From the NCBI GenBank assembly GCA_964440565.1, contig CAYTTB010000004.1, forward strand, positions 33,260 through 97,259: a DNA stretch of 64,000 nucleotides, in the 5' to 3' direction. Numbering within the stretch: the first letter of the stretch is position 1; each line of letters begins with the position of its first letter. Under the pieces are notes generated by a model. The model was not told the origin of the DNA, searched no databases, and was given only the letters and a program-made list of their open reading frames with translations. A program made the translations under genes and the position numbers. This DNA comes from an uncultured Thermoanaerobaculia bacterium. Its GTDB lineage: Bacteria; Acidobacteriota; Thermoanaerobaculia; Thermoanaerobaculales; Sulfomarinibacteraceae. Below, one piece after another: positions 4,717-62,507 of the stretch.

Positions 4717-4856
4717 TGCCTCGCCGGAATCCGCACCCCGCGAGGAAGACGAGCCGGCCGGGCCGGCGGGGCATCGTGCCCCGTCACCTCGGGCCGGGAG
4801 GACGAGATCGCCGGGACCGGTGGACCGGCCCGGCACGAACCGACGGGAGGTGACCG

Positions 4857-5414: not shown

Positions 5415-5493
5415 GAACCGGGGACGGGCGTGGCCGGGCGCCCGTGGCGGTGCCCGGCCCGCCGGTTCCCTCCACGTAGGGAGGGGCGGAGCG

Positions 5494-5709: not shown

Positions 5710-5739
5710 CCGCAGCCCGGGAGAGAGGAGGAGCGCACG

Positions 5740-44203: not shown

Positions 44204-45315
44204 GCGCCGGTCTCCCGGAACAGCGCCAGCACCGCCGTCTGGTTGTAGAACGCCGGGCGCCCGCTCACGGCCGGACCCACCTCCCCGAAGGTGAAGAACC
44301 CCGCGAGCGGCGCCTCACCCAGCGCCGTGGAGAGGGCGGCGGCCTCCTCCCCTGCCCGATCGCCCAGCACAAGCTCCCGCCCCACGCAGGAGAAGACCAC
44401 CGCAGCCTCGGGCCGGAAGGTGGGACGCACCCGCGCCGCCCCCCGCGCCAGCGAGCCACCGTCACCGATCCCGAGCCGCACGCGGTCGCCCTCCACCAGG
44501 TCTCCCCAGTAGGTCACCGCACCCGGCGGGCGGTCGAACCAGCGCATGCTCCGGTACAGCCCCCGCCGCTCCGGCCTCGGCCCGTCCACGATGAGCGGGA
44601 ACCGGTAGGCGGTCTCGGGCAGCGGCGCGAGCTCCCCGCCCACCGTGAACAGCGCCTCGTACCACCGCGTGGCCGGCTCCCCCTCGAGCTCGTAGAGGAC
44701 GTTGCCGGCGGCCTTGGTGACCGTGAACCTCGGCCCCGCGGGCTCCCACCCCCGCACGATCTCCACCGCCACCTCCACGCCCGAAAACCCCACCACCACC
44801 GCCCCCGCCTCCACCACGCCCCCGCCGGTGGCCACCCGGGCCAGCGGGACCTCGACCGGCTCCGCCTGGGAGGCGAGCCCGCCGGCGAGCCGGCCGCAGT
44901 CCACTCCCATGGCCCGGAGCCTGGCCAGGAACGCCTGGACCGGAAACCGGAGCCCGTCGGCCAGCAGGAGGGCACCCGAGGAGCGGCGGATCAGCGCCAC
45001 GGCCTCCCGCACGGAATCCAGGGCGAGAGGTTCACCGCGCCGGCCGGGGACCACCGCGATCTCCGCCGACCACCGCGAGCCCCGGGGCCCGAGGAGCAGC
45101 GCCACGCCGTCCCGCCGCAGATGGCTCCCAGCGAACTGGGTCACCGCCTCCACCGCCACCACCCGGCTCGCCGGCCACCGTGCCTCGAGCTCCGCCAGCC
45201 TCCCGTCCAGCTCGTGGCCGGGCGGGACGAAGGCCAGCACCAGCTCCGGCTCCACCTCCGACCCGGAGCCGCCGTCCCGCCCGAGCTCGGCCAGCGGCAC
45301 CACGGACCCTCGCAT
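44200..45315 (-). CDS. FIST (FIST_N + FIST_C) sensory-domain protein
   Basis: Last 371 aa of the artefactual ORF 44200..47076, from ATG (CAT 45313-45315). C-terminus AAVVFSCVGR...LAGFFTFGEVGP....PAFYNQTAVLALF is typical of FIST_C. Confidence 0.8.
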   Translation of the reverse strand: MRGSVVPLAELGRDGGSGSEVEPELVLAFVPPGHELDGRLAELEARWPASRVVAVEAVTQFAGSHLRRDGVALLLGPRGSRWSAEIAVVPGRRGEPLALDSVREAVALIRRSSGALLLADGLRFPVQAFLARLRAMGVDCGRLAGGLASQAEPVEVPLARVATGGGVVEAGAVVVGFSGVEVAVEIVRGWEPAGPRFTVTKAAGNVLYELEGEPATRWYEALFTVGGELAPLPETAYRFPLIVDGPRPERRGLYRSMRWFDRPPGAVTYWGDLVEGDRVRLGIGDGGSLARGAARVRPTFRPEAAVVFSCVGRELVLGDRAGEEAAALSTALGEAPLAGFFTFGEVGPAVSGRPAFYNQTAVLALFRETGA

Positions 45316-47757: not shown

Positions 47758-47849
47758 CTTGAGAAATCGGCGGCCGGGGAGTATGCTTGCGCACCGCGGG
47801 CCGGGTGCGTCCGTGACTCTCCGACGAAAGGGAGGTGGGATTATCGCCG

Positions 47850-48233
47850 ATGAACACCCTGGGAACGCACCTCATCGTCGACGCCTGGCAGGCCCCCCCT
47901 GACCTTCTCAACGACCCGGAGCACATCACGGCCGTTCTCAGACGGGCCGTGGCGGACGGTGGCGCGACCCTGATCGATCTCTGCGTCCACCAGTTCAGCC
48001 CCCACGGCGTGACCGCCACGGCGACCCTCGCCGAGTCGCACATCGCGATCCATACCTGGCCCGAGTACGGGTACTTCGCGGTGGATCTGTTCTTCTGCGG
48101 TGCCGGCGACGCGGACACGGCGCTCACGACGGTGCTCGAGGGAATGCGCGCCGGTCGCTCGCGCGCCACCCGCCTGGAGCGGGGGTTCCCCAAGGCCGTC
48201 CGGGTCGAGCAGCTCCTGCATGAGATCGCCTGA
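47850..48233 (+). CDS. speH: S-adenosylmethionine decarboxylase proenzyme (small bacterial SpeH/SpeD type)
   Basis: LGTHLIVDAW...TATATLAESHIAIHTWPEYGYFAVDLFFCG, with the ES self-cleavage site context. Start is ATG 47850 or GTG 47835. Confidence 0.85.
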   Translation: MNTLGTHLIVDAWQAPPDLLNDPEHITAVLRRAVADGGATLIDLCVHQFSPHGVTATATLAESHIAIHTWPEYGYFAVDLFFCGAGDADTALTTVLEGMRAGRSRATRLERGFPKAVRVEQLLHEIA

Positions 48234-49110
48234 GCCCGGGGACCTACCTGTCGGTGACGCGGACTGGTGGCTGGAGGCGCCGGACTCCAGCGGCGTCTGC
48301 CAGGCGCTGAAGGTGCGCCTCGTCCACCGGGAGCGCACGCCGTACCAGCGCCTCGCGGTCCTGGAGCATCGGCTGCTCGGCCGCATCCTCGTCCTGGACG
48401 ACGTGGTCCAGACCACGCAGGCGGACGAGTTCATCTACCACGAGATGCTCGTCCACGTGCCCCTGCTCGGCTCCACCGCGTGCACCAGGTCCGACGGCGC
48501 GGACGTGCTCATCGTGGGCGGTGGCGACGGCGGCACCCTCCGCGAGGTGCTCTCCCACGACTGGGTCCGCCGCGTGGTGATGGTGGAGATCGACGAGGCG
48601 GTGGTGCGCGCCTGCCGGGAGCACCTGCGCATCCACGGAGACTACGACGACCCCAGGGTGGAGCTGGTCATCGGCGACGGCGTGGCCTACGTCGCCTCGG
48701 ACGCAGCCCGCAGCCGCCCCTTCGACGTCATCCTGGTGGACTCCACCGACCCCGGGGGACCGTCGGAGCCGCTGTTCGGCGAGAGGTTCTGCCGCGACGC
48801 GCTGCGGTGCCTGAAGCCCGGCGGCGCGCTCGCGCGCCAGATGGGCGTCCCCTTCTACCAGCCGTTCCTCGCACCGGCGCTGGCGCAGATGCGCGAGGTC
48901 TTCGGCACGGTGGAGATCTACCGCGCCGCGGTTCCCACCTACATCGGCGGCGACATGGCGTTCCTGGTCAGCACCACGGACGGCTCCAGCTGCCGCCAGC
49001 CGCGCCGCGAGCACGTGGGCCGGTTCTACAACCCCGACGTCCACCGCGCCGCGTTCGCCGTTCCCACCTTCTGGACCCGCCCGGAGCTCGCCCCGCCCAC
49101 CGCGGAGTGA
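48220..49110 (+). CDS. speE: spermidine synthase (polyamine aminopropyltransferase)
   Basis: ATG 48220 inside ORF 48100..49110. TPYQRLAVLE, LVLDDVVQTTQADEFIYHEML, VLIVGGGDGGTLREV, VEIDEAVV, VILVDSTDPGGP. Confidence 0.9.
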   Translation: MRSPEPGDLPVGDADWWLEAPDSSGVCQALKVRLVHRERTPYQRLAVLEHRLLGRILVLDDVVQTTQADEFIYHEMLVHVPLLGSTACTRSDGADVLIVGGGDGGTLREVLSHDWVRRVVMVEIDEAVVRACREHLRIHGDYDDPRVELVIGDGVAYVASDAARSRPFDVILVDSTDPGGPSEPLFGERFCRDALRCLKPGGALARQMGVPFYQPFLAPALAQMREVFGTVEIYRAAVPTYIGGDMAFLVSTTDGSSCRQPRREHVGRFYNPDVHRAAFAVPTFWTRPELAPPTAE

Positions 49111-49113
49111 CCC

Positions 49114-50502
49114 TCACTCCCCTTCCAGGACCACCGTCAGACCCCGCCGGCGGGCGCGAACCGTCGGCGAGGCGAGGTCGAGCACCACGAACAGCTCCGG
49201 CGGCCGGAACTCCCGGTGCAGCCCGACCCGGACCCTGAGGAGCTGCCGCGTCCCCACCGGGATCTCCGGCCGGGGGAACTCCCTGTCGATCCCGCGGATC
49301 CTGAGGAGGAGCCGGGGCGGGTCGTCGAGCCGGAGCGATCGGACCCTGCCGGCCCCGAGCGCACCCGCCGGCTGCACGGTCACGACGGTCGTCCGTCCCT
49401 GCCGGCGCCAGCGGATGGCGGCGACGGCCCGCGCGGGCCGAGGGGTGGGGCGTGGCGGCGCGGTCACGGCGGCGGTGGCGCGATCGGCGCGAGGCGTGGA
49501 GGGCACGGGCACCGTGGGCGAGGCCACGGGCGCCGCTCCGGAACGCCGGAGGGCCGTCGCCGTGCCCGGAGATGGCGAACCGGCGGTGCGAACCCAGATG
49601 GATCCGCCGGTACCCACCTCCATCGCCACGGTGGGTATGGCCGCGGGGGCCGCAGGCGGCATCGTGGGCGCCGCGACCCGCGATCCCCGCTCCGAGGCCC
49701 GCTGCCACCACCCGGCGAACCCCGCGATGGCGAGGACCACGGCGAGCGCCAGGCCCACGAGCGGAAGCGGCGAACCGCGGGGGGCACGCGGCCCGCCACC
49801 CGACGCCTCGGGCGGGAGCGGCCGCCCGAGGTCGGCCAGCGGATCTCCCGGCAGCTCGACAGCGGGCTCCAGCGGCGGGAGCGCCTCCGGCCCCGGCAGG
49901 CGATCGAGGACCTCCCCGGGCTCCTCGCCCCCGGCGGCACCGCCGCTCCCCGTCCCCTCCGTCTCCTGCGGCGCGGCGAACACCCGCTCCCCCGGGCTCT
50001 CGGCCGCGGGCTCCGCCGCCCGAGGCTCCTCGAACGGCTCCCCCCACCCCACCGTCACGGGACGCTCCCGCAGGCGCTCGGCCACGACCCGCCGCACCAG
50101 CTCCCGCCCCTCCCGGTCCAGCTCGACGAACCGGATTCCCATGCCCGGAGGACGTCCCAGCGCGTCCCCCGGCTCCCGACGCCACACCACCTCGCCCAGG
50201 CCGTGAAGCAGCGGCGAGCCGTCCCTCAGCCGGAAGGCGAAGCGAACTCGCGTCCCCACCGGCGGCGGTGCCGGGGAGCGCAGGAACATCCCACCCAGGG
50301 AGATGTCGCCCGCGTGCTGCTCGAGGAACTTCCCGAAGCTCTCCACCAGCACCTCGAGCTCGCCCGGTGCCGGGACCCGCACCTCCCGTCTCCGGCCGTC
50401 GCCGCCACCCTCGGCCACTCGCACCTCCCCCTCGCCATGATCGCACGACGTCCGGGCGGCGTCATCCCCGGCCGGGGCCCGGATCCCTCCCACGATCGCC
50501 AT
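49114..50502 (-). CDS. PilZ-domain protein with Pro-rich linker, TM and C-terminal AMIN-like domain
   Basis: RRREVRVPAPGELEV...GDISLGGMFLRS (PilZ RxxxR / D.S.GG). C-terminus TTVVTVQPAG...LDDPPRLLLRIRG...ELFVVLDL resembles AMIN. Confidence 0.7.
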   Translation of the reverse strand: MAIVGGIRAPAGDDAARTSCDHGEGEVRVAEGGGDGRRREVRVPAPGELEVLVESFGKFLEQHAGDISLGGMFLRSPAPPPVGTRVRFAFRLRDGSPLLHGLGEVVWRREPGDALGRPPGMGIRFVELDREGRELVRRVVAERLRERPVTVGWGEPFEEPRAAEPAAESPGERVFAAPQETEGTGSGGAAGGEEPGEVLDRLPGPEALPPLEPAVELPGDPLADLGRPLPPEASGGGPRAPRGSPLPLVGLALAVVLAIAGFAGWWQRASERGSRVAAPTMPPAAPAAIPTVAMEVGTGGSIWVRTAGSPSPGTATALRRSGAAPVASPTVPVPSTPRADRATAAVTAPPRPTPRPARAVAAIRWRRQGRTTVVTVQPAGALGAGRVRSLRLDDPPRLLLRIRGIDREFPRPEIPVGTRQLLRVRVGLHREFRPPELFVVLDLASPTVRARRRGLTVVLEGE

Positions 50503-50888: not shown

Positions 50889-53018
50889 ATGGACCGGGCA
50901 GGCGGGAGCGGTACCCGTGGCGACCTGCTCCGGCTCGGCTTCGCCGCCGCGGTGGCGCAGTCGGTGCTGGTGCGCGAGGGGATGAGCGCCTTCGCCGGCT
51001 CGGAGCTCGCCTGGGGGCTGGTGCTCGCCACCTGGCTCCTGGGGATGGCGCTCGGCGCCCGCGCCGGGGCGGCCGCTCGCGGAGGGCGGAACGCGGCGGC
51101 GGCGCCGGCCGCGGTGATCCTCCTCGCCGCGGCGGGCACGGTCCTGCTCCGGGCGGTGCCCGCCCTCGCCGCGGGTGTCGCCGGCGAGACCGCTCCGGGG
51201 TGGCGGGTGGCGTGGGCGTGGGTGGTGGCGGTGCTCCCCGCCGCCGCGGCCGGCGGGTGGGCGTTCCCGCACCTCGCCGGGCGGCTCGCCTCGGGCCCCG
51301 GCGGGGCGTACGCGCTCGACGCCGCCGGCGGGCTCGCCGGGGGCCTCGCCTTCACCTTCCTCCTCGCTCCGCACGGCTCCGCGGCGGCCCTCGCCGCGGC
51401 CCTGGGGCTCGTCCTGTCCAGCCGCTGGCTCGGCCGCCCTCTGCTGGCCCTGGCCATCCTCGCCCTCGCGCTGGCCGCCGCACGCCCGGCGGGCGAGGTG
51501 CTGGCGGCCGCCACCTGGAGGTGGTCCCGCCATCCCGGAGCGCTCGCCGCCTGGGCGGAGACCCGCCACCAGCGGCTCGAGCTGGCGGCATCGGAGCCGC
51601 GCGCGGTGTACGCCGACGGCCGCCTTCTGGCCACGGCGCCGGATCCGTGGCTCGCGGCCGTCCGGGGCCATCTGCTGGCCCTCCTCCATCCGGACCCGCG
51701 GCGGGTGCTGGCAGCGGGCGGACTGGTCCGCGGGGTCGTCCCCGCCCTGCTCCGACACCCGCTGGAGCGGCTCGACCTGGTGGAGGAGGATCCCCGCCTG
51801 GTGGAGCTGCTGCCCCGCTGGCTGGACGGGGGCCTCGCGACCACGGTGCGCGACCCGCGCGTGCGCCTCCACCGGGAGCCCGTCGCGCTCCTCTCCGGCC
51901 GCGGGCGCTGGGACCTCATCCTCCTGCTGGGCCCGGACCCGGCGTCGCTCAGGGCCAACCGCACGCGCACGGAGGAGCTCCTCCGCCGATGCCGGGAGCA
52001 CCTCGCTCCCGGCGGGCGGGTGGTGGTCCGGGTCGGGGCCCCCGACACGTACCTGGGCGGCCCGGGGGGGCGTCTCCTGGCGACCCTGTACGCCACCGTG
52101 CGGGCGGTGTTCCCCCACGTGACCGCCCTCCCCGGCGAGGCCGTGCTCCTGGTGGCGGGCGCGGAGCCCGTCGCGGACGCGGCCGACCCCGCGGCGCTCG
52201 CCGCCCGCTGGCGCGCGCGCGGCATGGCGGACCCGGTGTTCGCGCCCGAGCTGCTCCCCACGCTGGTCGAGCCCTCCCGCCAGCGCGCGCTCCAGCGCTG
52301 GCTCGAGGCGCACCCCGGTCCGCCCAACCGTGCCGCCCACCCCACCGCCCTGCTGCCCGCGTCGGCTCGGGCCGAGGGCCGGGGGGCCACCAGGGTCGCC
52401 GCCGCGCTCTCCCGCCTGGAGCGGGTGCGTCCCGCCACGCTGGCCCTGGTCCTCGCCGCCGCGGCCGCCGGCGTGGCGGCCCTGGCGCTGGCCCGCCGTG
52501 CCGCCGCCGGTGCCGCAGCGATGCTCGGGGTGGGGTTCGCGGGGATGGTGTGGTACCTCGCCGGTCTCGCCGCCTGGCAGTCGCTGCGAGGCGCGGTGTA
52601 CGCCGAGATCGGGGCGCTCTCGGCGGCGTTCATGGCCGGCACCGTGGCCGGCGCCGCGCTCTCCCACCGCTGGCGGGCGCCCGAGCGGCGCCTCCCCTGG
52701 GCGCTGGCTGCCGGCGTCGCCGTCTCCGCGGCCCTCGCGGCGGGCGTCCCCTTCGCCACCCCCTGGGCCGTCCCGCCGCTGCTCGTCGCCGCGGGGATCG
52801 TGCCGGGTGTCGCCTTCGCCGGCGCGGCGCGGCTCGTGGACCCGGAAAGGGCCCGGCGCGCCGCGGCCGGGGGGTTCGCCGCCGACGAGGCGGGCGCCGC
52901 CGTGGGCGCCCTGGTCACCGTCCCCCTCATCGCCCTCGTCGGCGTGCCCGCCGTCGCCGCGGCCGCGGCGACGCTGCTGCTGGCCGCTCTGCCCGGCACC
53001 TCCCGCCACGGCCGGTGA
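50889..53018 (+). CDS. polytopic membrane protein fused to a spermidine-synthase-like (class I MTase fold) domain
   Basis: 709 aa. About 7 N-terminal and about 5 C-terminal hydrophobic segments flank RVLAAGGLVRGVVPALL...LDLVEEDPRLVELL...WDLILLLGPDP...LAPGGRVVV. Confidence 0.7.
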   Translation: MDRAGGSGTRGDLLRLGFAAAVAQSVLVREGMSAFAGSELAWGLVLATWLLGMALGARAGAAARGGRNAAAAPAAVILLAAAGTVLLRAVPALAAGVAGETAPGWRVAWAWVVAVLPAAAAGGWAFPHLAGRLASGPGGAYALDAAGGLAGGLAFTFLLAPHGSAAALAAALGLVLSSRWLGRPLLALAILALALAAARPAGEVLAAATWRWSRHPGALAAWAETRHQRLELAASEPRAVYADGRLLATAPDPWLAAVRGHLLALLHPDPRRVLAAGGLVRGVVPALLRHPLERLDLVEEDPRLVELLPRWLDGGLATTVRDPRVRLHREPVALLSGRGRWDLILLLGPDPASLRANRTRTEELLRRCREHLAPGGRVVVRVGAPDTYLGGPGGRLLATLYATVRAVFPHVTALPGEAVLLVAGAEPVADAADPAALAARWRARGMADPVFAPELLPTLVEPSRQRALQRWLEAHPGPPNRAAHPTALLPASARAEGRGATRVAAALSRLERVRPATLALVLAAAAAGVAALALARRAAAGAAAMLGVGFAGMVWYLAGLAAWQSLRGAVYAEIGALSAAFMAGTVAGAALSHRWRAPERRLPWALAAGVAVSAALAAGVPFATPWAVPPLLVAAGIVPGVAFAGAARLVDPERARRAAAGGFAADEAGAAVGALVTVPLIALVGVPAVAAAAATLLLAALPGTSRHGR

Positions 53019-53426: not shown

Positions 53427-54563
53427 TCACTCCCACACGCCGGGGATCTCCCGGCCGCAGTCGGGGCAGCGGCCCCGCTCGAGCCGGTTGGCGAGGATCG
53501 CGTACCCCATCCGGCGCACCAGCAGCGCGCCGCAGCCCGGGCACCGGGTGCTCTCGCCCGGGTGCCCCGGCACGTTGCCCACGTAGACGAAGTGCAGCCC
53601 CTCGGCCTGGCCGATCCTCCACGCCCGCTCGAGGGTCGCCACGGGGGTCGGGGGGAGGTCGGTGAGCCGGTAGGTGGGATGGAACCGGGTGAAGTGCACC
53701 GGGACCTCCGGCCCGAGGTTGGCCCGCACCCACCGGCACAGGTCGCGGATCTCCTGCTCGCCGTCGTTGAGCGTGGGGATCAACAGGACCACGATCTCGA
53801 GCCAGACACCCGCGGCGCGAACCCGCTCCAGCGTCTCGAGCACCGGCTTGAGGTGCCCCCGCACCACCTCGCGGTAGAACCGCTCGCGGAACGCCTTGAG
53901 GTCCACCTTGTACGCGTCCAGCAGCGGCAGCACGTCACGGAGCGGCCGCTCCTGGATGTACCCGTTGCTCACCACCACCGAGCGCACCCGCCGCTTCCGC
54001 GCCGCACGCGAGACGTCCCGCACGTACTCCCAGAAGATCGAGGGCTCCGAGTACGTCGCCGCCACCACCGGGATCCCCCGATCCGCGGCGAGCGCCGCCA
54101 TCGCCTCCGGGGGCAGCCAGTAGGCCGGCACCTGCTCCGGGCGGAACTGGGAGATCTCCCAGTTCTGGCAGAACTTGCACTCGACGTTGCAGCCGGCGGT
54201 GGCGTACGAGAGCGCCTGGGCTCCCGGCAGCACGTGGAAGAACGGCTTCTTCTCGATGGGATCCACGTGCAGCGCGCACACCACCCCGTGCACCAGCGTG
54301 TGGTAGGTGCCGCCGCGGTTCTCGCGCGCCCCGCAGCTGCCCCGCTCGCGGTCGGCCACGGTGCAACCGCGCGGGCACAGCCCGCACTCCACCCGCTTCC
54401 CCTCGAGCCTGCGGTACCACGACGCCTCGCGGGCCGGCAGCTCCTCGACGGGAATCTCGCGCCCCACCTCGAGGCGGGCCTCGGCGCGCCGGGCCCAGCA
54501 CGCGGCCATCGCCGCCGCGCCGCCCAGCGCCAGCACCTCGCGCCGGCCGAGCTTCCGGCTCAC
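53427..54563 (-). CDS. amrS: AmmeMemoRadiSam system radical SAM enzyme (AmrS) with twin-arginine-like N-terminal extension
   Basis: GTG 54563 (GTGA overlap). N-terminus VSRKLGRREVLALGGAAAMAA. VECGLCPRGC...GSCGAR, radical SAM CNVECKFCQNWEIS, C-terminal ribbon RCPGCG...RCPDCG. Confidence 0.85.
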   Translation of the reverse strand: MSRKLGRREVLALGGAAAMAACWARRAEARLEVGREIPVEELPAREASWYRRLEGKRVECGLCPRGCTVADRERGSCGARENRGGTYHTLVHGVVCALHVDPIEKKPFFHVLPGAQALSYATAGCNVECKFCQNWEISQFRPEQVPAYWLPPEAMAALAADRGIPVVAATYSEPSIFWEYVRDVSRAARKRRVRSVVVSNGYIQERPLRDVLPLLDAYKVDLKAFRERFYREVVRGHLKPVLETLERVRAAGVWLEIVVLLIPTLNDGEQEIRDLCRWVRANLGPEVPVHFTRFHPTYRLTDLPPTPVATLERAWRIGQAEGLHFVYVGNVPGHPGESTRCPGCGALLVRRMGYAILANRLERGRCPDCGREIPGVWE

Positions 54564-55504
54564 GCCCGTACCTCCCGGATCCGCGCCGGATCTCCCTCGC
54601 CCAGCCCGTACCGGGACGCGGTGGCGAGCCACCGCGGCGGCCGCTTCGCCTCGGCGAGCGTGGGAAGGCCCCGCCGCCTCCGCTCCGCCTCGATCACCCG
54701 CCACGCCCACGCGTCGGCCGCCACCGGGTCCAGCGACGCCGCCACCAGCCCGAGCCGCCAGGTCGCGCCGGGGCGGTACGCCGGGCCGCCGTCGCACTGC
54801 GCCGTTCCGCCGTCGAGGATCGTGAGCCGGAGCTTGTCCCGGATCACCGGGTGGCGCACCACGTCGGCCACGTACGGATCGCAGTTGTCGTCGTGGTACT
54901 TGTTCGGGTTGTGGATCACGCCGTACCAGTTCTTGAGCCCCGCCGACACCCCGGCGAGGTCGTGGTCCTTGACCACGCCGAAGGAGATCAGCACCGTGGC
55001 CACCTCGGTCACCACCCGGGCGTACAGCGAGCCGATGGCGCCCGAGGTGCGGATGCGCCGGTCGTAGTCGCCGTCGATCCCCACGCACCGGAACGGGCCA
55101 CCCCCGCGCCCCACCGGGTATCGCGCGCGCCGCAGCTCCCGGCTCGACCGCTCGAACACCACGATGCGCGCGGGTGGCACGCCGGCCTCCGCGAGGAGCT
55201 CCGCCAGCGCCGCCACCAGCTGCACGCGCGGCGACAGCCGTGGCCCGGCCAGGCAGTTGACCTTGATCCCCACCACGTCCTCCGGGCCCGCCAGGCGCCG
55301 GAGCGCCGCGACGGCGTCGCGTGCCCCGGCCGCCGCCGCGATCGCCCCCGCCACGGCCCGCCGCGCCGCCGCCGCGTCGAGGCGGAGCCCCGCCGGCACC
55401 CGTGCCACGCCCACCCGCCCCCGTGCGCCGGGTCGGGCCGCCCCCAGCGCCGCCCCCGCGCCGAGCAGCGCCACGAGCTCCCGCCGCGAGAGCTTCCCGC
55501 TCAC
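54560..55504 (-). CDS. DUF362-domain protein with twin-arginine signal
   Basis: GTG 55504 (GTGA overlap). VSGKLSRRELVALLGAGAALGAA. VGIKVNCLAG...VVKDHDLAGVSAGLKNWYG...DPVAADAWAWRVIE. Confidence 0.8.
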   Translation of the reverse strand: MSGKLSRRELVALLGAGAALGAARPGARGRVGVARVPAGLRLDAAAARRAVAGAIAAAAGARDAVAALRRLAGPEDVVGIKVNCLAGPRLSPRVQLVAALAELLAEAGVPPARIVVFERSSRELRRARYPVGRGGGPFRCVGIDGDYDRRIRTSGAIGSLYARVVTEVATVLISFGVVKDHDLAGVSAGLKNWYGVIHNPNKYHDDNCDPYVADVVRHPVIRDKLRLTILDGGTAQCDGGPAYRPGATWRLGLVAASLDPVAADAWAWRVIEAERRRRGLPTLAEAKRPPRWLATASRYGLGEGDPARIREVRA

Positions 55505-57018
55505 GGCCCCTCCCCGAACACCTGCGCCGTGAACACCTCGAGGCGCGCCCCGTGCCGCCACGCGCCGGGGTCGAGCCCGGCCTTGAGGGACAGACGCGAC
55601 AGGAACGTCGGAAGATCCCAGCCGGTCTCCGTGGCGACCTGGGGGAGGAAGACCGCCCGGTGCCCGCCCTTGGTCAGCACCACCCCGTGCACGCCGAGCC
55701 GGATCGCCTGCGGCCCCGGCACCCTGCGTGGCGGCGAGAGCACCGACACCTCCACCCGCACGTCGTCCAGCTCGTCCGGGGTGAGCTCCGGGAACCTCGG
55801 GTCGTGCGCGGCCATCACCGCCGACCGCACCACCTCCTCCGGAAGCGGCGAGGTGCCCACGATGGAGCCCATGCACGCCCTGAGATCCTCGCCCGCGGAC
55901 GCGCCCCGCCGCCTGAGCGTCACGAAGGCACCCGCCACGGCGGCCAGGTTCCCCTCCACCCGGTGGGCCGCGAACCACTCCGCCAGCTCCGGCCCGTGCC
56001 CGAGGTGGGTCTCGAGCGCCGCCCTCGCCAGCGCGAGCAGCGCCGCCCTCTCCGTCGCCGAGAGGCGTCCAAGCCGCGGTGGGGGCGGATCGTCGCGCCA
56101 CGCCGTCCACCGGCCCGAGAACGTCGCCGACACGTAGGTCACCACCCGCTCCCAGTCGCCGGTCACGTGACCCGAGGTGGTCACCTCCCCCACCGCCCCC
56201 GTCCCCTCGAAGGCGTGCGCCGCGAGCTCGGACAGCACCAGCAGGGGGTGCGCCCCGCACACCGTGTCCTCCGAGGCCAGCACCTGCATCCAGAACCCCG
56301 CGGGGTCCGGCGCCACCACCCGTCCCGCCGTGACGCGCGCGAGCCGCACCAGCCGCTCACCCAGGCCCCGGCGCGGGAACGGTGCGTAGCCGTACCCCTT
56401 CCCGTGGTGGGTGAAGTCGGACGACGCGAGCACCACCGTGCCGGGGCCGAGCAGCGGAACGAGCGCCCGCGCGATCGCCCGCGCCTCCCCGCGGTCGGTG
56501 CGCGGTCCCACCAGGACCGGGACGATGCGCACGGCGCCCATCGCCTCCCGGATCAGCGGCAGCTCCACCTCCAGGCTGTGCTCCCTCTCGTGCGCCGCGG
56601 CCGGGCCGTCGAAATAGGGCCTTCCCCTGAGCCGCTCGAGCGCCGCGCGATCGAGCGGCAGGTTCCCCAGCGGGGTGGCGAAGGCGTCGAGCCCCCCGGC
56701 GGGCAGCGCCGCGCCGGCGAACGCCATCCGGTGCGAGGGACCGAGCAGGATCACCCGGTCCGGCCGTGCCGCGGCGAGCGCCCGGATCGAGCGCGCCGCC
56801 AGCCGCCCCGAGAACGCCCACCCCGCGTGGGGCGCGATCGCGGCCACCGCCGGCGGCTGCTCGCCCGCCGCCTCGAGCAGGCGCCGCGCCTCGGCCCGCG
56901 CCGTCTCCGGGTCGGCGGGGTAGAACCCGCCCGCCACCGCCGGCGGGCGAACTCCCGCCGCGGCGGTCGCCCCCGCGGCCAGGACCGCTGCCACCATCGC
57001 GCCCCGCACGCGTCCCAC
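55501..57018 (-). CDS. fused Memo-like (AmrB) / AMMECR1 (AmrA) protein with N-terminal signal-like segment
   Basis: Memo part: AGGFYPADP...IAPHAGWAFSG...ILLGPSHR...SSDFTHHG. AMMECR1 part: GAFVTLRRRG...LRACMGSIVG...AAHDPRFPELTPDELDDVRVEVSVLSPP...FLPQVATETGWD. Start is ambiguous among 56997 ATG, 57009 or 57018 GTG, and 57150 ATG. Confidence 0.8.
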   Translation of the reverse strand: MGRVRGAMVAAVLAAGATAAAGVRPPAVAGGFYPADPETARAEARRLLEAAGEQPPAVAAIAPHAGWAFSGRLAARSIRALAAARPDRVILLGPSHRMAFAGAALPAGGLDAFATPLGNLPLDRAALERLRGRPYFDGPAAAHEREHSLEVELPLIREAMGAVRIVPVLVGPRTDRGEARAIARALVPLLGPGTVVLASSDFTHHGKGYGYAPFPRRGLGERLVRLARVTAGRVVAPDPAGFWMQVLASEDTVCGAHPLLVLSELAAHAFEGTGAVGEVTTSGHVTGDWERVVTYVSATFSGRWTAWRDDPPPPRLGRLSATERAALLALARAALETHLGHGPELAEWFAAHRVEGNLAAVAGAFVTLRRRGASAGEDLRACMGSIVGTSPLPEEVVRSAVMAAHDPRFPELTPDELDDVRVEVSVLSPPRRVPGPQAIRLGVHGVVLTKGGHRAVFLPQVATETGWDLPTFLSRLSLKAGLDPGAWRHGARLEVFTAQVFGEGP

Positions 57019-57146
57019 GTCACCAGTGATACTCCCGTCCCCCGCGACCCGCAAGGCCCCCTGGGCTGGAGTGTCCCCAGGAATTCCGGCTGTCGTGCTC
57101 GCTCCGCCACGGTCGGCCGGGACCGGGATCGGCCTCTCGGCCGATC

Positions 57147-58631
57147 TCATCCGCGCTCCGCCGGGCCCAGCAGCATCCGGTTGAGGGGGTCGCGGGTCTC
57201 GCCCACCGAGCTCACGCGGATGGCGGCCCGCTCGCCCACCGGGCAGCGGTGCTCGCAGATGCCGCAGCCCACGCACCGCCCGGGGTCCACGTGCGGCCGC
57301 CGCACCCGCACCCGCCGGCCCCCGTGCGTCGGCACCTCCACCTCCTCCAGCCAGATCGCCTTCGGGGAGGTGGGGCACATCTCCTCGCACACGATGCACG
57401 GCGTGGCCATCGCCCACGGCAGGCAGCGGCCGCGGTCGATGAAGGCGGTGCCGATGCGGACCGGCTGGCCGCCGTCGAGCCCCAGCTTGCGCGCCGGCTC
57501 CAGCCGCTCGATGGCGCCGGTGGGGCACACCTCGCCGCACCGGGTGCAGGCGTACTCGCACCATCCGCGGCGCATGTCGAGCCTCGGGGTCCAGAACCCC
57601 TCGACCCCCGCCTCGCCCACGGCGGGCCGGATCACGCCGGTGGGGCAGACCAGCTGGCAGAGGGAGCACTTCACGCACCGCTTCAGGAATTCGGGCTCGG
57701 GGAGCGACCCGGGCGGCCGGATCAGCTCCGCGCGGAGCGCCGTCCGGCCGCCGCCGGTGGCCTCCAGGATCGGCGCCGCGATCAGGCCCAGCAGCACCGA
57801 CCCCACCACCCGCCGCCGGCCCACGTCCACCGGCACCCGCTCCGGCAGCGGGGGCAGGAACCGGTAGGCGATGGCCCCCTCGGGGCACGGGTCCACGCAC
57901 TCGAGGCAGACCATGCACTCCCCCACCCGGTGCTCGCCGAGCGGCTCGTCCGCCCCCTGGCAGGCGAAGGTGCACAGGGTGCAGGTGGAGCAGGCGTCGC
58001 CCGACCGGTGGATGCGGAAGAGCGCCAGCCGGGCGAACACCCCCAGCAGGGCACCGAGCGGGCACAGCGCCCGGCAGAACACCCTCGGGATCCACCGGCT
58101 CGCCAGGACGATCGCGAGCAGGAACCCGGCCGCCAGCCACCCCCCCGGCACGGGGCCCCGGCCGGGTGCCACGGCCGCCAGTGCCCCGATCCCCCGCGCG
58201 AGGGCCGACAGCGGATCGAGGAGCCCGGTCTGGAGCGAGCCCATGGCCGCCGCCGCGAGCAGGAACGCCAGCACCAGGTACTTGCTCCGGTACCACGGCC
58301 GCCACCGGTTCGCCTCCCGGCTCTCCCGCCGCGAGCGCGGCGCGAGCAGGCGGCTGGCGAGCTCCTGCACCGTCCCCAGCGGGCAGATCCAGCCGCAGAA
58401 CACCCGCCCGAACACCACCGTGAGGGCGACGATCGCCAGCGCCCAGGCGAGCGCGGCGGGGAGGCGGCGCGCGGCCAGCCCCACACCCACCATCGCCAGC
58501 GGGTCGGCGTGGTGGAAGGCGGCGAAGGGGAGGTCGCGCGGGTCGCCCGCGAGCGCCCGCACCGCGAGCCAGACGAACAGGACCAGGAAGAACGCCTGGT
58601 AGACGATCCGCACCCGCCGGAACCAGGTCAT
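57147..58631 (-). CDS. membrane-bound polyferredoxin (NapH/NosR-like CX3CP TM region plus about six 4Fe-4S Cys motifs)
   Basis: ATG 58631 (ATGA overlap). FCGWICPLG and FCRALCPLG in the TM region. CSTCTLCTFAC, CMVCLECVDPCP, CVKCSLCQLVCP, CTRCGEVCP, CIVCEEMCP, CVGCGICEHRCP. Confidence 0.8.
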   Translation of the reverse strand: MTWFRRVRIVYQAFFLVLFVWLAVRALAGDPRDLPFAAFHHADPLAMVGVGLAARRLPAALAWALAIVALTVVFGRVFCGWICPLGTVQELASRLLAPRSRRESREANRWRPWYRSKYLVLAFLLAAAAMGSLQTGLLDPLSALARGIGALAAVAPGRGPVPGGWLAAGFLLAIVLASRWIPRVFCRALCPLGALLGVFARLALFRIHRSGDACSTCTLCTFACQGADEPLGEHRVGECMVCLECVDPCPEGAIAYRFLPPLPERVPVDVGRRRVVGSVLLGLIAAPILEATGGGRTALRAELIRPPGSLPEPEFLKRCVKCSLCQLVCPTGVIRPAVGEAGVEGFWTPRLDMRRGWCEYACTRCGEVCPTGAIERLEPARKLGLDGGQPVRIGTAFIDRGRCLPWAMATPCIVCEEMCPTSPKAIWLEEVEVPTHGGRRVRVRRPHVDPGRCVGCGICEHRCPVGERAAIRVSSVGETRDPLNRMLLGPAERG

Positions 58632-59647
58632 GCCGTCCCCAGCTCCTCCACCAGGTGCGGGTCGGCGTGTCCCAGTCCCCGCCGCTCGGCCTCGACCAGG
58701 AAGCCGAGGCGTCCGGGATCGAGACCCAGCAGCGCCGCCCCCCAGGCGTCGCACGCCACCGGGTCGGTGCCCGCCGCCACCGCGTCCATCCGGCGGACGT
58801 CCGCCAGCCGCCCTCCCTGCGGGCCGCCCGCCACCAGGATCCGGGTCGCGTCCACCACCGTGAGCGTGGGCCGGAAGGTGGCGGCGAGCTCGGCGATGCT
58901 CCGGTGGATGTCCTGGTGGAGGCGGGGACGGCCCGGGCCCAGGACACCGAACCAGTTCTTCATCCCCAGCGTGGCCCGCGACAGCGAGTGGTGCTTCACC
59001 ACCGGCACGTTGATCACCCGGTCCGCCTCGAGCAGCTCCCGCATCACGGAAAGCCCCGCGGCCCGCCCGCCCACGGCGGCGGGCACCAGCTCCAGCGCGG
59101 CACCGTACCGCACCTCGGCCCCGGCGGCCCGGGCCGCCGCCTCGATCCCCGAGCGGCCGAAGGCGCGCCGGGGGTCGTTGCACGACAGGTCGGCCACCAC
59201 CACCCGCCGCGCCCCGGCGGCGAGGCAGAGACGGACCAGCTCCCCCACCACCTCGGGGTTCGTGTCGGCGGCCTGCTCCGGCAGGCGGTCCCAGCCGACG
59301 TTGGGCTTGATCAGCACGGTCTCGCCGGGGCGAACGAAGCGCTCCATCCCGCCGAGGGCGGCCACCGCCCGCCGCACGTTGGCGGCGGGGTCCGAGCCCC
59401 GAGCCGCCACCGCGCGCACCGGCGCGCCGGACGTCCGCCAGTCGGGCACCGGCCGCGGCGCGGTCCCGCGCGGGCCGCGCCGCACCAGCCACGCCACCCC
59501 GCCGGCCGTGGCCCCGATCGCCGCCGCCGCGGCCGCGAGCCTCGCCACCGCCTCGCGGCGGCTCACCGGGGGCGGGTACGGCGCGTGCCCGCCGGAGCCG
59601 CCGTCCCGCTGCGAGCGCCGCCTCGCCACCGACACCTCCCGCCCCAT
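58628..59647 (-). CDS. DUF362-domain protein with twin-arginine-like signal (paralog of 54560..55504)
   Basis: VSRREAVARLAAAAAAIGA. VLIKPNVGW...VVKHHSLSRATLGMKNWFG...DPVACDAWGAALLG. GGAGGGGG RBS. Confidence 0.8.
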   Translation of the reverse strand: MGREVSVARRRSQRDGGSGGHAPYPPPVSRREAVARLAAAAAAIGATAGGVAWLVRRGPRGTAPRPVPDWRTSGAPVRAVAARGSDPAANVRRAVAALGGMERFVRPGETVLIKPNVGWDRLPEQAADTNPEVVGELVRLCLAAGARRVVVADLSCNDPRRAFGRSGIEAAARAAGAEVRYGAALELVPAAVGGRAAGLSVMRELLEADRVINVPVVKHHSLSRATLGMKNWFGVLGPGRPRLHQDIHRSIAELAATFRPTLTVVDATRILVAGGPQGGRLADVRRMDAVAAGTDPVACDAWGAALLGLDPGRLGFLVEAERRGLGHADPHLVEELGTA

Positions 59648-59725: not shown

Positions 59726-60412
59726 GTGGGCGCGCGGATCCTGGTGGTGGAGGACGATCCCAAGCTCGCGGAGGCGGTCGCGCGCGGGCTGGCCGCCGAG
59801 GGGTACGACGTCACCGCCCGCGCCACCGGTGAGGAGGGGTTCTACCTCGCGCTCGAGCAGCGGTTCGACCTGATCCTGCTCGACCTGATGCTTCCCGGCC
59901 GGGACGGGCTCGAGATCCTGTCGGCGCTGCGCGAGCGGGGCGTGGAGACGCCGGTGCTCGTGCTCACCGCGCGCGGCGAGGTGGAGGACCGGGTGGAGGG
60001 CCTCGACCGCGGTGCGGACGACTACCTGGTCAAGCCGTTCGCCTTCGCCGAGCTGCTCGCCCGCATCCGCGCCCTGCTCCGGCGGGGACGCCCCGACGCC
60101 CGCCTGCGCCTCGCCGCCGGCGAGCTGGAGATGGACCTGGTGACCCGCTCCGCGTCGCGTGCGGGGCAGCCGCTCGAGCTCACCGGCCGCGAGTGGGACC
60201 TGCTGGAGTGCCTCATGCGCCGGGCGGGGCGGGTGGTCTCGCGCGAGACCATCGCCCGCGAGGTGTGGCACGAGCCGAAGCGGGTGACGCCGATCGACAA
60301 CCTCATCGACGTGTACATCGCGCGCCTCAGGCGCAAGGTGGACGACCCGTTCCCGTGCCCCCTGATCCGCACGGTGCGCGGGGTCGGGTTTCGCCTCGAG
60401 GACGGGTCGTGA
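59726..60412 (+). CDS. OmpR-family response regulator, heavy-metal (CusR/CopR-like) subgroup
   Basis: ARILVVEDDPKLAEAVARGLAAEGYDV...DLILLDLMLPGRDGLEIL...PVLVLTARGEVEDRVEGLDRGADDYLVKPFAFAELLARIRALLRR...IRTVRGVGFRL. Confidence 0.85.
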   Translation: MGARILVVEDDPKLAEAVARGLAAEGYDVTARATGEEGFYLALEQRFDLILLDLMLPGRDGLEILSALRERGVETPVLVLTARGEVEDRVEGLDRGADDYLVKPFAFAELLARIRALLRRGRPDARLRLAAGELEMDLVTRSASRAGQPLELTGREWDLLECLMRRAGRVVSRETIAREVWHEPKRVTPIDNLIDVYIARLRRKVDDPFPCPLIRTVRGVGFRLEDGS

Positions 60413-61806
60413 CCGCCATCGGCCGCCTACCCATCCGTCTGAGGCTCACCATCGTCTACACCGCGGTCGTGACCCTGACGGTGGCGCTGTTCGCCGGCGC
60501 CACCCACGCCCTGGTGCGCTCCATGCTCCTGCGGACGCTGGACCGCGACCTCGAGCGCCGGCTCGCCCTGGTCGCGGACACCCTCCTCGAGGAGGCCGGC
60601 GAGCTCGGCGAGCTCGAGGACCACGGCGCCGTGCCGCTGTTCCGGATCGCGGACGCGGAGGGGACACTGTACGCCACCGCGGCATGGGACCGCGCGCACC
60701 TTCCCCCGCCGGCCCCGTCCGGCCCGTCCTGGGTACCCGCGCGCGCCGGCGCCGTCTACCGGGTCGCGGTCCGCACCGTGCGCTACCGGGGCCGCGAGAC
60801 CGCGGTGGCCGTGGCCGAGGACGCCTCGAGGGCCCTGGCCACGCTCGGAGCGCTCCGCACCGCCTTCCTGGTGGGAATCCCGGGCGTGCTCGCCCTCGCC
60901 GCCGGGGCGGGAGTGGTGCTCGCGCGGCGGGCGCTCGAGCCGGTGGGCGAGATGGCCGCCACGGCGCGCCGGATCACCGCCGAGCACCTGTCCGAGCGGC
61001 TTCCCGTGGCGAACCCGGAGGACGAACTGGGACGGCTGGCCCGGGTGCTCAACGACCTCCTGGAGCGGCTGGAGAGCTCCTTCACCCAGCTGCGCCGGTT
61101 CACGGCCGACGCCGCGCACGAGCTCCGCACGCCGCTGGCCGCGATCCGCAGTGTGGGGGAGGTGGGGCTCGAGACCGCCTCGAGCCTCGACGAGTGCCGC
61201 GACGTGGTGGGGAGCCTGCTGGAGGAGGTGGACCGGCTCTCGCGCCTCGTGGACTCGCTGCTGCTGCTCGCCCGAGCCGACGCGGGCGCGGTGCCCCTGG
61301 CACCCCAGCCGACGGACCTCGCCCGGCTGGTGGAGGAGGTCGTGGAGCTCATGCGTCCGCTCGCCGAGGAGCGGTCGCAGGAGCTGGCGCTGGAGGCGGC
61401 CGCGCGCCCGCGGGTGCGCGCCGACCATGCCACCCTCCGGCAGGCGCTGATGGACGTGCTGGACAACGCGATCCGCTACACACCGGAGGGCGGCGCGATC
61501 GGCGTGCGGGTGGCGACGCTGGACCGCCGGTGGGCGGCCGTGGCGGTGCGCGACAGCGGCCCCGGGATCCCCGAGAGCGCTCGGGAGCGGATCTTCGATC
61601 GGTTCTTCAGGGCCGGGCCCTCGCGCTCGCACGACCACCGCGGCCTCGGGCTGGGCCTGGCGGTGGCGCGATGGGCCGTGGAGGCCAACCGCGGGAGGAT
61701 CGAGGTGGCGAGCCAGCCAGGGCGGGGCAGCACCTTCACCATCGTCCTGCCGCTCGACGACGACGCCGCCCGCGCGGCGGATGGGAACACGGGAGGGCCG
61801 GCATGA
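60409..61806 (+). CDS. sensor histidine kinase, heavy-metal (CusS/CopS-like) architecture
   Basis: GTGA overlap with the RR gene. PIRLRLTIVYT start, periplasmic loop, HAMP, FTADAAHELRTPLAAI, DNAIRYTP, RDSGPGIP, GLGLGLAVAR. Confidence 0.85.
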   Translation: MTAIGRLPIRLRLTIVYTAVVTLTVALFAGATHALVRSMLLRTLDRDLERRLALVADTLLEEAGELGELEDHGAVPLFRIADAEGTLYATAAWDRAHLPPPAPSGPSWVPARAGAVYRVAVRTVRYRGRETAVAVAEDASRALATLGALRTAFLVGIPGVLALAAGAGVVLARRALEPVGEMAATARRITAEHLSERLPVANPEDELGRLARVLNDLLERLESSFTQLRRFTADAAHELRTPLAAIRSVGEVGLETASSLDECRDVVGSLLEEVDRLSRLVDSLLLLARADAGAVPLAPQPTDLARLVEEVVELMRPLAEERSQELALEAAARPRVRADHATLRQALMDVLDNAIRYTPEGGAIGVRVATLDRRWAAVAVRDSGPGIPESARERIFDRFFRAGPSRSHDHRGLGLGLAVARWAVEANRGRIEVASQPGRGSTFTIVLPLDDDAARAADGNTGGPA

Positions 61807-62507
61807 GGCGACCCGACGCGACGACGGTGCTGGGTGTGGCGCTGGCGGCGGCCCTGGTGCCGGGCGTGCCGGCGAGGGCGGAAGGGCCCGAGCCGGGTCG
61901 GCCGGCGCGGGCCGTCATCCATCTCGCCTTCGACGGGGTGGTCCCCGGAGCGCTCCCCGCCGGGTGGCGGGTGGAGGCCACGAACCCGCGCGGCCCCCTC
62001 GCCGCCTGGGCGGTGGAGGCCGAGGCGGGCGACTCGGGAGGCAACCGGGTGCTGCGCGTACGGCCCGCTCCCGGCGCCCGTCCAGGGACGTTCAACCTGT
62101 GCTGGACACGCGCGATCCGGTTCCGCGATGGGACCATCGAGGTGCGCCTGCGGGCCGAGCGCGGGGAGGAGGACCGGGGCGGCGGCCCCGTGTGGCGGGT
62201 CCAGGACCGCGACGACTACTACGTCGCCCGCTACAACCCGCTGGAGCGCAACTTCCGCGTCTACGTGGTCCGCCGCGGCATCCGCCGGCGGCTGGCGGGG
62301 GCGTCCGGGATCCGGATCCCCGGAGGGCGCTGGTGCACCCTCCGCATCGCGCACCACGGCGACCACATCGAGGGATGGCTCGACGGCGAGAGACTCCTCG
62401 ACGTGCACGACGCCACCATCCCGGCGGCCGGGGGCGTGGGCCTGTGGAGCAAGGCCGACGCCGCCACCGCCTTCGACGACCTCGAGGTGCGCGTGGAGGC
62501 GCCGTGA
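61803..62507 (+). CDS. secreted DUF1080/LamG-like (concanavalin-like) domain protein
   Basis: ATGA overlap with the kinase gene. Signal peptide ...VPGVPARAEG. GTFNLCWT....F.DG.IEVRLRA.....D.GGG.VWRVQD.DDYYV.RYN...RNFRVY......R...A........W..L.I...G..I.G.LDG..LL.V.D......G.VGLWSK.D....FDDL. Confidence 0.65.
   Translation: MRRPDATTVLGVALAAALVPGVPARAEGPEPGRPARAVIHLAFDGVVPGALPAGWRVEATNPRGPLAAWAVEAEAGDSGGNRVLRVRPAPGARPGTFNLCWTRAIRFRDGTIEVRLRAERGEEDRGGGPVWRVQDRDDYYVARYNPLERNFRVYVVRRGIRRRLAGASGIRIPGGRWCTLRIAHHGDHIEGWLDGERLLDVHDATIPAAGGVGLWSKADAATAFDDLEVRVEAP

Follow-up and report, generated by a model that had tools for sequence, protein, structure and literature searches.

Can radical S-adenosylmethionine (SAM) chemistry take place outside the cytoplasm? 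This question is raised by a stretch of DNA of 64,000 nt (about 75% G+C) from an uncultured Thermoanaerobaculia bacterium, hereafter called the window, whose numbering is used for all positions. Five minus-strand genes in it (g1-g5, 53427-59647) encode the three parts of the AmmeMemoRadiSam system, which are AMMECR1, Memo and the radical SAM enzyme AmrS, together with two DUF362 proteins and a membrane polyferredoxin. Since radical SAM enzymes depend on SAM, iron-sulfur clusters and a strong reductant, they are generally placed in the cytoplasm, and we know of no periplasmic radical SAM enzyme shown by experiment. AMMECR1 and Memo are ancient families with links to human disease, and to our knowledge the biochemical function of neither is known. 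We favour the reading that the locus is an extracytoplasmic AmmeMemoRadiSam system at the outer face of the cytoplasmic membrane, composed of two modules, and give it a probability of roughly 0.6. The predicted extracytoplasmic location and electron feed are well supported in silico, and the comparative data suggest that radical SAM chemistry takes place outside the inner membrane in many anaerobic bacteria.

Family assignments and export leaders

The locus comprises the following parts, where GC3 is the G+C content at third codon positions.

58628..59647, minus strand: g1, DUF362a, 339 aa, PF04015
57147..58631, minus strand: g2, polytopic polyferredoxin, 494 aa, with NapH-like and NapG-like model matches
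57753..57818, minus strand: twin-arginine motif inside g2 (RRR, residues 272-274) and transmembrane helix 5 (residues 275-293)
57019..57146: non-coding gap between g2 and g3, GC3 0.70 (measured over 57019-57150)
55501..57018, minus strand: g3, Memo-AMMECR1 fusion, 505 aa from GTG 57018, TIGR04336 and TIGR04335
54560..55504, minus strand: g4, DUF362b, 314 aa, PF04015
53427..54563, minus strand: g5, AmrS radical SAM enzyme, 378 aa, TIGR04337
50889..53018, plus strand: probable sixth component, SpeE-like 14-helix membrane protein, 709 aa, convergent with the AmrS gene

A first-pass annotation of the window had listed the five minus-strand open reading frames (ORFs), and all of them are present in our ORF check. 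Its family assignments also hold, as AmrS, Memo, AMMECR1 and both DUF362 proteins score above the curated cut-offs in the profile searches that it proposed. AmrS matches TIGR04337 with 368.9 bits (cut-off 220) over residues 48-378, and its CX3CX2C motif and further cysteine motifs are invariant across the alignment. The Memo half of g3 reaches 198.6 bits with TIGR04336 (cut-off 26) and 143.4 with PF01875, and the AMMECR1 half reaches 141.3 bits with TIGR04335 (cut-off 99). When aligned to MEMO1 and PH0010, the fusion protein keeps the Memo metal-site residues and the AMMECR1 LRxCxG motif, its LRACMG being aligned with LRGCIG of PH0010. Using PF04015 (cut-off 24), scores of 165.5 and 77.3 bits were obtained for g1 and g4, respectively.

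Export leaders were called from the sequence pattern, as an RR or KR motif together with a hydrophobic stretch. The twin-arginine-type signals that had been noted at the N-termini of AmrS and both DUF362 proteins are present in this form, and the leader codons have GC3 values of 0.89-0.98. In AmrS, the RR leader GRREVLALGGAAAMAACWA precedes the family core, and it is hidden in standard annotation because the family models begin after it, at residue 48. The RR leader of g4 is SRRELVALLGAGAALGAA. That of g1 consists of VSRREAV (residues 28-34), a hydrophobic segment and W..RR, with a GC3 of 0.98 in its codons; g1 is probably targeted to the twin-arginine translocation (Tat) pathway or anchored N-terminally, with the DUF362 domain outside, and the a-type DUF362 orthologues carry a leader of the same type. 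The signal-like N-terminus ascribed earlier to the fusion protein was also found, as a leader of the general secretory (Sec) type, GRVRGAMVAAVLAAGATAAAG, at the g3 start.

The same leaders recur widely among relatives. Among the 120 AmrS homologues that are closest (66-78% identical and about 378-385 aa long), 116 have an RR motif with a hydrophobic stretch after it. Scanning with the AmrS alignment, at one genome per species, gave 80 loci from Acidobacteriota, Planctomycetota, Verrucomicrobiota, Omnitrophota, Thermodesulfobacteriota, KSB1, Latescibacterota, Zixibacteria, Caldithrix and others; six metagenomic loci and the window itself bring the set to 87 loci and 88 AmrS ORFs (loci and proteins are cited below by L and P numbers). 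RR or KR leaders were found in 66 of the 88 ORFs, many with the classical S/T-RR-x-F-L-K motif, and another hydrophobic leader in 15, so that only archaeal copies and a few others are leaderless. This neighbourhood survey of AmrS homologues, which had been proposed in the first-pass annotation, indicates that the leaders are not start artefacts, as they are conserved in AmrS orthologues across phyla. A family search over 1.84 billion representative proteins yielded 1,547 AmrS-family clusters at E <= 1e-30, and among the best 150 of these about 40 have an RR leader and about half are leaderless, at 335-350 aa. RR leaders are also carried by most DUF362 proteins adjoining AmrS. Memo and AMMECR1 form one fused ORF in about 44 loci, almost always with a Sec-type or lipoprotein-type leader in front.

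Two further features of the leaders were observed. A cysteine in the middle of the hydrophobic region is conserved in many AmrS leaders (P0018-P0120, e.g. LACAGAAAALL; MAAC in the window, residues 18-24), and it sits too early for a typical lipobox. Leaderless DUF362b orthologues lie beside AmrS with an RR leader in L018, L035, L036 and L037, which may reflect Tat hitch-hiking or a different topology.

Two modules and their candidate electron conduits

The five genes had been described as one translationally coupled operon. The 4-nt overlaps reported at three junctions are indeed present (ATGA at g1/g2, GTGA at g3/g4 and g4/g5), but the fourth, which depended on a g3 start at 57150, had to be abandoned, since GC3 over 57019-57150 is 0.70 compared with 0.95-0.98 in the five genes. 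Orthologues of g3 are 495-513 aa long and their N-terminus is a hydrophobic leader segment. Because of the low GC3 of 57019-57150 and the orthologue lengths, which fit the shorter gene, the g3 start was placed at GTG 57018 (or ATG 56997), and g2 and g3 are separated by about 128 nt of non-coding DNA. No Rfam match and no promoter-like or terminator-like site was found in this gap; outside it, promoter and terminator scans gave nothing above chance expectation and the Rfam scan was empty. The locus is therefore better described as two modules parted by a non-coding gap, and the DUF362a-polyferredoxin pair is also free-standing in distant relatives. It is a juxtaposition of this pair with a Memo-AMMECR1/DUF362b/AmrS core that has its own DUF362 paralogue. 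The core genes are encoded together, all within 3.6 kb on one strand, and their order with the 4-nt overlaps is kept in L001, L002 and L004-L006.

The candidate electron conduit is the polyferredoxin g2. Its earlier description as NapH/NosR-like applies to the NapH-like half (residues 5-256) but is incomplete, as this half is fused to a NapG-like half (residues 274-473). TIGR02163 (NapH/MauN) matches the former and NapG/MauM models match the latter, with scores below the equivalog cut-offs (98.2 vs 213 for TIGR02163, 82.1 vs 234 for NF007013 NapH and 85.7 vs 269 for NF007012 NapG). Along the protein there are two CX3CP motifs, two 4Fe-4S motifs, helix 5 and four 4Fe-4S motifs, which gives six 4Fe-4S motifs in all. 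The helix-5 segment is GRRR-VVGSVLLGLIAAPILEATG-GGRTALR, with a mean Kyte-Doolittle hydropathy of 1.81 and basic residues after the helix (GGGRTALR), and RR or KR before helix 5 is kept in the g2 orthologues of L003, L007, L011-L013 and L016. In the polytopic polyferredoxin of delta proteobacterium MLMS-1 (Q1NSB0), reporter fusions show that Sec and Tat are both needed (Tooke et al. 2017, PMC5449189). In that protein the twin arginine lies directly before helix 5, basic residues follow the helix and the NapG-like domain is periplasmic (PMC5449189).

The gene neighbourhoods associate AmrS with several such modules. Across the 87 loci, Memo-AMMECR1 lies near AmrS in 42-44 and DUF362 lies directly upstream of it in 37. 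A NapH-NapG fusion polyferredoxin is near AmrS in 8 loci, with NapH-type proteins in a few more, a DsbD_2 protein in 16 (about 7 of these being a DsbD_2-FMN_bind-NapH-like fusion) and a DUF6599 lipoprotein in 10. No locus has both DUF362 and DsbD_2 beside AmrS; when their co-occurrence was tabulated, the four cells held 0, 37, 16 and 34 loci (Fisher p = 4.6e-5). The five-component order in Thermoanaerobaculia is DUF362a, polyferredoxin, Memo-AMMECR1, DUF362b and AmrS, with two unrelated genes inserted in L003, and the order in Terriglobia is polyferredoxin, DUF6599, DUF362b, AmrS, Memo-AMMECR1, SpeE-like protein and DUF362a. A metagenome scan with g2 gave 80 polyferredoxin loci. Of these, 58 extend for 1 kb or more beyond the upstream end of the polyferredoxin gene, and in 57 of the 58 the next gene on that side encodes DUF362. 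The gene that directly follows the polyferredoxin encodes Memo-AMMECR1 in 12 of 19 close relatives (identity of 63% or higher) and in none of 31 distant ones (45-60%). On the simplest reading, DUF362 would be the periplasmic partner of the polyferredoxin, and DUF362b would link the conduit to AmrS.

Natural fusions of AmrS bear on the same point. In P0394 and P0404, a signal and an FMN_bind domain precede AmrS with no helix between, and FMN_bind domains are extracytosolic and flavinylated by ApbE (PMC8238504). A signal also precedes Memo, AMMECR1 and AmrS in P0418, and CBM_11 or a beta-propeller and AmrS in P0371 and P0369. Membrane modules are joined to AmrS as FMN_bind plus NapH-like plus one extra helix (P0368, P0378), as DsbD_2 plus FMN_bind plus NapH-like plus one helix (P0376), or as DsbD_2 (P0373, P0395). 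Systems of the NapH-like and DsbD types are modular electron conduits to extracytosolic enzymes (PMC8238504). Judged from their domain order, the fusions place AmrS at the predicted outer side of the membrane and tie it to putative transmembrane modules for reducing equivalents.

Some additional partners were seen around these modules. In lineages that lack DUF362, mainly Omnitrophota, a DsbD_2 membrane protein follows AmrS (L075, 1801-2481, plus strand) or a DsbD_2-FMN_bind-NapH-like fusion precedes it (L086, 7829-9754, plus strand). A DUF6599 (PF20244) lipoprotein-like gene lies just upstream of DUF362 in L012 (7927-8634, plus strand) and in L007, L010, L011, L013, L016, L018, L034, L035 and L039. 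It is also present in 12 of the polyferredoxin loci L087-L166, and the window has none. In Terriglobia it occupies the interval from the polyferredoxin to DUF362b, and many metagenomic loci have it upstream of DUF362a. All-versus-all clustering of six-frame ORFs was contaminated by conserved antisense and out-of-frame ORFs, and the DsbD_2, DUF6599 and SpeE-like families were kept after manual check; around the distant polyferredoxin loci, this clustering gave no usable further conserved neighbour family.

DUF362, the SpeE-like protein and neighbouring genes

An AlphaFold2 model of DUF362b (mean predicted local distance difference test score, pLDDT, 91) was compared with the PDB using Foldseek, and only LarA-family chains were matched (E 3.2e-6 to 3.4e-4, probability 0.99-1.0), with query-normalised TM-scores of 0.40-0.50. 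DUF362 also shares Pfam clan CL0471 with LarA. When DUF362 was searched against the PDB by sequence and by profile, neither LarA nor any other solved structure was matched. The invariant columns over the a and b types include K81, K179, H181, K191, N192, D231 and D259 and no cysteine, a feature that speaks against an iron-sulfur site. The intervals between K81, H181 and K191 resemble those between R75, H174 and K184 of LarA, a lead drawn from spacing only. Based on the model, we assign DUF362 a predicted LarA-like fold and do not class it as a LarA enzyme. A Tat route for DUF362 would fit a cofactor loaded in the cytoplasm.

The earlier list of components had overlooked a recurrent sixth partner, the SpeE-like protein encoded at 50889-53018. 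In 43 of the 87 loci, which span many phyla, a homologue is encoded no more than a few kb from AmrS or Memo-AMMECR1, in either orientation. The AlphaFold2 model (pLDDT 93.5) has seven helices, a soluble domain (about residues 213-514, between helices 7 and 8) and seven further helices; a topology from hydropathy only was inconsistent and was replaced by the helices of this model. Over 52 homologues, lysine and arginine counts per loop total 15.7 in the even loops and 1.8 in the odd ones. From this alternation, both termini are predicted to be inside and the soluble domain outside. Foldseek relates the soluble domain to aminopropyltransferases (E 4e-11, target TM-score about 0.7), and two orthologues exceed the cut-off of 40 for NF037959, 'fused MFS/spermidine synthase' (L012 with 68.3 and L072 with 48.1). 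A literature search on membrane spermidine synthases found no paper on this SpeE-like 14-helix family. A second fold of the adenosyl-sulfonium type that is predicted to be periplasmic makes a supply of SAM or decarboxylated SAM (dcSAM) outside the cytoplasm more plausible and does not show one.

Polyamine genes lie close to this gene. A SAM decarboxylase gene (47835-48233, plus strand; TIGR03330, 120.6 vs cut-off 75.65) and a spermidine synthase gene (48100-49110, plus strand; NF002010, 266.4 vs 260) are about 2 kb from the SpeE-like gene and could supply dcSAM locally. In L001, the one syntenic locus that was read, neither gene is present in the region covered. A PilZ-type protein with a TIGR02266 domain (49114-50502, minus strand) sits in the interval between the polyamine genes and the SpeE-like gene, and a PilZ protein is at the same place in L001. 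GGDEF and GGDEF-EAL proteins are encoded just upstream (42419-44311, minus strand, and 45502-47754, plus strand), which points to a cyclic di-GMP signalling neighbourhood.

Farther from the locus, a second radical SAM protein (35177-36106, plus strand) is unrelated to AmrS and has a weak similarity, far below cut-off, to tungsten-cofactor/SPASM-type maturases. A metal-efflux cluster at the window edge consists of the 3' part of a CusA/CzcA-type RND (resistance-nodulation-division) pump gene, cut by the edge (3-1055, plus strand), a small secreted-looking protein containing His and Met, with no family match (4854-5411, plus strand), and a copper-translocating P-type ATPase (5740-8274, plus strand; TIGR01511, 619 vs cut-off 397). 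On the other side, a 234-aa protein with a signal-like N-terminus (61803-62507, plus strand), whose start overlaps the stop of a kinase gene considered below, has no NCBIfam match and no homologue in the other loci.

Proposed mechanism, rival explanations and related systems

The mechanism that we infer, which covers protein location, electron path, the role of DUF362, the SAM source and the substrate, can be outlined as follows. Module A consists of DUF362a and the polyferredoxin, whose NapH-like half would sit in the membrane; the helix 5 preceded by the twin arginine would put the NapG-like four-cluster half in the periplasm, so that a transmembrane electron wire is formed. Module B consists of Memo-AMMECR1 with its Sec-type leader and DUF362b and AmrS with their Tat-type leaders, and the Tat route would let AmrS exit folded, with its iron-sulfur clusters in place. 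Electrons from a membrane or cytoplasmic pool would pass through the polyferredoxin to the periplasmic side, perhaps via the LarA-fold DUF362 proteins, and would reduce the [4Fe-4S] cluster of AmrS. AmrS would split SAM to give a 5'-deoxyadenosyl radical, which may act on a substrate that the Memo metal site and the AMMECR1 cysteine site either hold or receive. The SpeE-like 14-helix protein could supply or use an adenosyl-sulfonium cosubstrate, or could act on the same envelope substrate, such as an amine or a lipid. In a recent survey, no Pfam family marks anaerobes more strongly than AMMECR1 (PMC13386939), and this link fits an oxygen-sensitive enzyme outside the cytoplasm. The earlier proposal of a trio outside the cytoplasm with its own electron feed is retained on the basis of leaders conserved across phyla, the known membrane insertion of the polyferredoxin family and the use of other electron modules by other lineages, but its single-operon and metal parts are not.

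Several points weigh against an extracytoplasmic system. Pfam TAT_signal has no match in the window AmrS (E <= 1) or the DUF362 proteins (E <= 0.01), it occurs at the right position in six of nine orthologues at sub-threshold scores (12.8-17.3 bits vs cut-off 22.7), and the leader motifs of the window (RREVL, RRELV and RREAV) depart from the RRxFLK consensus; the putative Tat assignment is carried by the comparative pattern, not by this model. The window copy of the SpeE-like protein misses the PF01564 cut-off (22.2 vs 22.9), is not matched by NF037959 and has degenerate cofactor motifs. Quinol falls far short of the reducing strength that a radical SAM cluster requires, and the electron source must therefore be low-potential or energy-driven. 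We also know of no demonstration that SAM is available in the periplasm. The hint that DUF362 and DsbD_2 are alternative accessories follows lineage and is not independent evidence. In addition, the non-coding gap parts DUF362a-polyferredoxin from the core in the window, and the pair is missing within 10 kb of most core loci and is a free-standing two-gene unit with opposite-strand genes on both sides in L159.

These last observations would also be expected if the exported core merely stood beside a self-contained DUF362a-polyferredoxin redox unit that has its own substrate and does not feed AmrS, and the nearly obligate DUF362-polyferredoxin pairing, together with the absence of Memo-AMMECR1 after the polyferredoxin in all 31 distant relatives, is in line with this. 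However, the pair is found beside the core in two gene orders, in two Acidobacteriota classes and an unclassified bacterium, Memo-AMMECR1 does follow the polyferredoxin in most of the close relatives, and the core has its own DUF362 paralogue. Furthermore, in lineages without DUF362, AmrS has other transmembrane redox modules as neighbours or fusion partners, so it appears to need such a feed from somewhere. We consider a self-contained redox unit unlikely. A less probable explanation is that AmrS carries out its radical chemistry in the cytoplasm, with either itself or a Tat-exported partner such as DUF362b as the target, and has a non-radical role after export, with the polyferredoxin serving another step. 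No periplasmic SAM pool is known to us, Tat exports folded cofactor-bearing proteins and also complexes, and the leaderless DUF362b beside leader-bearing AmrS (L018, L035-L037) would fit hitch-hiking. On the other hand, Memo-AMMECR1 has a Sec-type leader without RR in most loci, which implies that it crosses unfolded and would meet AmrS only outside. The fusion of AmrS downstream of periplasmic FMN_bind, DsbD_2 or NapH-like modules is sensible only if reducing power is needed outside, and a second fold of the adenosyl-sulfonium type is predicted there as well.

A link to metals had been proposed from the adjacent two-component system (regulator, 59726-60412; kinase, 60409-61806), which had been called heavy-metal-type. 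Its best NCBIfam hits are heavy-metal models, but both proteins score below the curated cut-offs (TIGR01387, 246.7 vs 279.2; TIGR01386, 266.2 vs 292.55). On this proposal, the module would be an envelope response to Cu, Ag or Zn stress under the control of this system, whose regulator is divergent from g1 and about 80 bp away; eukaryotic Memo1 reportedly binds copper, and a CusA/CzcA fragment and a copper P-type ATPase are in the window (3-8277). However, no comparable regulator-kinase pair was found at the other 86 loci, save the weak case of L017, the metal-efflux genes are about 50 kb away, and the partners that are conserved are of the redox and SAM types rather than metal-handling proteins. 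As the scores are below cut-off and the neighbour is not conserved, a heavy-metal function was rejected as unsupported, and we regard the stress-response explanation as very improbable. The least probable explanation of all, to which we give hardly any weight, is that the true starts lie downstream of the RR segments, so that the system would be an ordinary cytoplasmic one. High-GC DNA does give long spurious N-terminal extensions, one of which did occur at the 57150 start of g3, and leaders are missing from about half of the 150 nearest AmrS representatives. In contrast, the leader pattern and length are conserved across phyla of very different GC content, the leader codons have the high GC3 values given above, the 4-nt overlaps fix the starts of g4 and g5, and the AmrS fusions argue for an outside location.

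The extracytoplasmic system that we favour for this locus leads to a broader and more tentative proposal, namely that periplasmic radical SAM chemistry occurs in a large clade of bacterial AmmeMemoRadiSam systems. If this is true, SAM or a decarboxylated relative would be present outside the cytoplasm, with the 14-helix protein as its carrier or user, and low-potential electrons would be wired over the membrane by NapH-NapG, NosR-like or DsbD-type modules. Tat-exported LarA-fold DUF362 proteins would serve as the redox adaptor in the periplasm, with a cofactor that they receive in the cytoplasm. The chemistry would be directed at an envelope lipid, polyamine or glycan, and a first functional handle on AMMECR1 and Memo would be gained. 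The exported variant would narrow the search for AMMECR1 and Memo function to envelope-located substrates, with the polyferredoxin, DUF362 and the SpeE-like protein as candidate partners. The presence of AmrS with export leaders in many phyla, beside or fused to electron conduits, challenges the assumption that such enzymes are confined to the cytoplasm. It can also provide a physiological context for DUF362 and the dual Sec/Tat polyferredoxins, both orphan families; for the polyferredoxins, only the way in which they insert into the membrane has been established (PMC5449189).

In the literature that was searched, which did not cover the Memo-AMMECR1 context analysis of Burroughs et al. (2019, J Biol Chem), only incidental mentions of AmmeMemoRadiSam were found and the exported architecture was not found described, and the flavinylation survey (PMC8238504) does not mention the system. 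We have apparently encountered an undescribed, widespread extracytoplasmic variant of a known orphan system. Compared with the standard AmmeMemoRadiSam system (TIGR04335 AmrA, TIGR04336 AmrB and TIGR04337 AmrS), all three models are matched here by adjacent genes. However, Memo and AMMECR1 are fused, every part has a predicted export leader, a DUF362 gene sits between the fusion gene and AmrS, and the trio is joined by transmembrane electron modules and a SpeE-like membrane protein.

The individual parts can likewise be compared with known proteins. For AmrS, the closest solved structures and next-best families are the pyruvate formate-lyase activating enzyme and the glycyl-radical activases; AmrS is only weakly similar to them (25.5 bits to 3C8F) and has additional N- and C-terminal cysteine motifs, and no glycyl-radical enzyme lies nearby. 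In its predicted fold, DUF362 resembles LarA, the family of nickel-pincer nucleotide (NPN)-dependent 2-hydroxyacid racemases and epimerases, in which the LarA1 site has NPN-binding Lys/Arg, a Ni-ligand His and two catalytic His (K184, R75, H200, H108 and H174), but it is shorter (a core of about 240 residues vs about 420 residues) and is predicted here to be Tat-targeted. The soluble domain of the SpeE-like protein has the aminopropyltransferase fold of the membrane-bound NF037959/PRK03612 enzymes, whereas the protein has seven more helices after this domain, which is predicted to face outward.

For the electron conduit, the polyferredoxin of Tooke et al. and g2 share a four-helix NapH-like region with iron-sulfur motifs, an RR-preceded helix 5 and a NapG-like four-cluster domain, a likeness in described features. 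That paper gives no physiological partner (PMC5449189), whereas the polyferredoxin here has DUF362 as its gene partner and, in some lineages, AmmeMemoRadiSam as well. The two halves of g2 score best with the families of the NapGH quinol dehydrogenase of periplasmic nitrate reductase and share its logic of a membrane NapH and a periplasmic NapG ferredoxin, but they are in one polypeptide and no nap genes are nearby. The NapH-like/DsbD flavinylation-associated systems, including NosR and PceC (Meheust et al. 2021, PMC8238504), follow a similar principle, in which a modular conduit in the membrane serves an exported redox enzyme; unlike them, g2 has no FMN_bind domain, and the client proposed here is a radical SAM enzyme, a type of client not mentioned in that survey.

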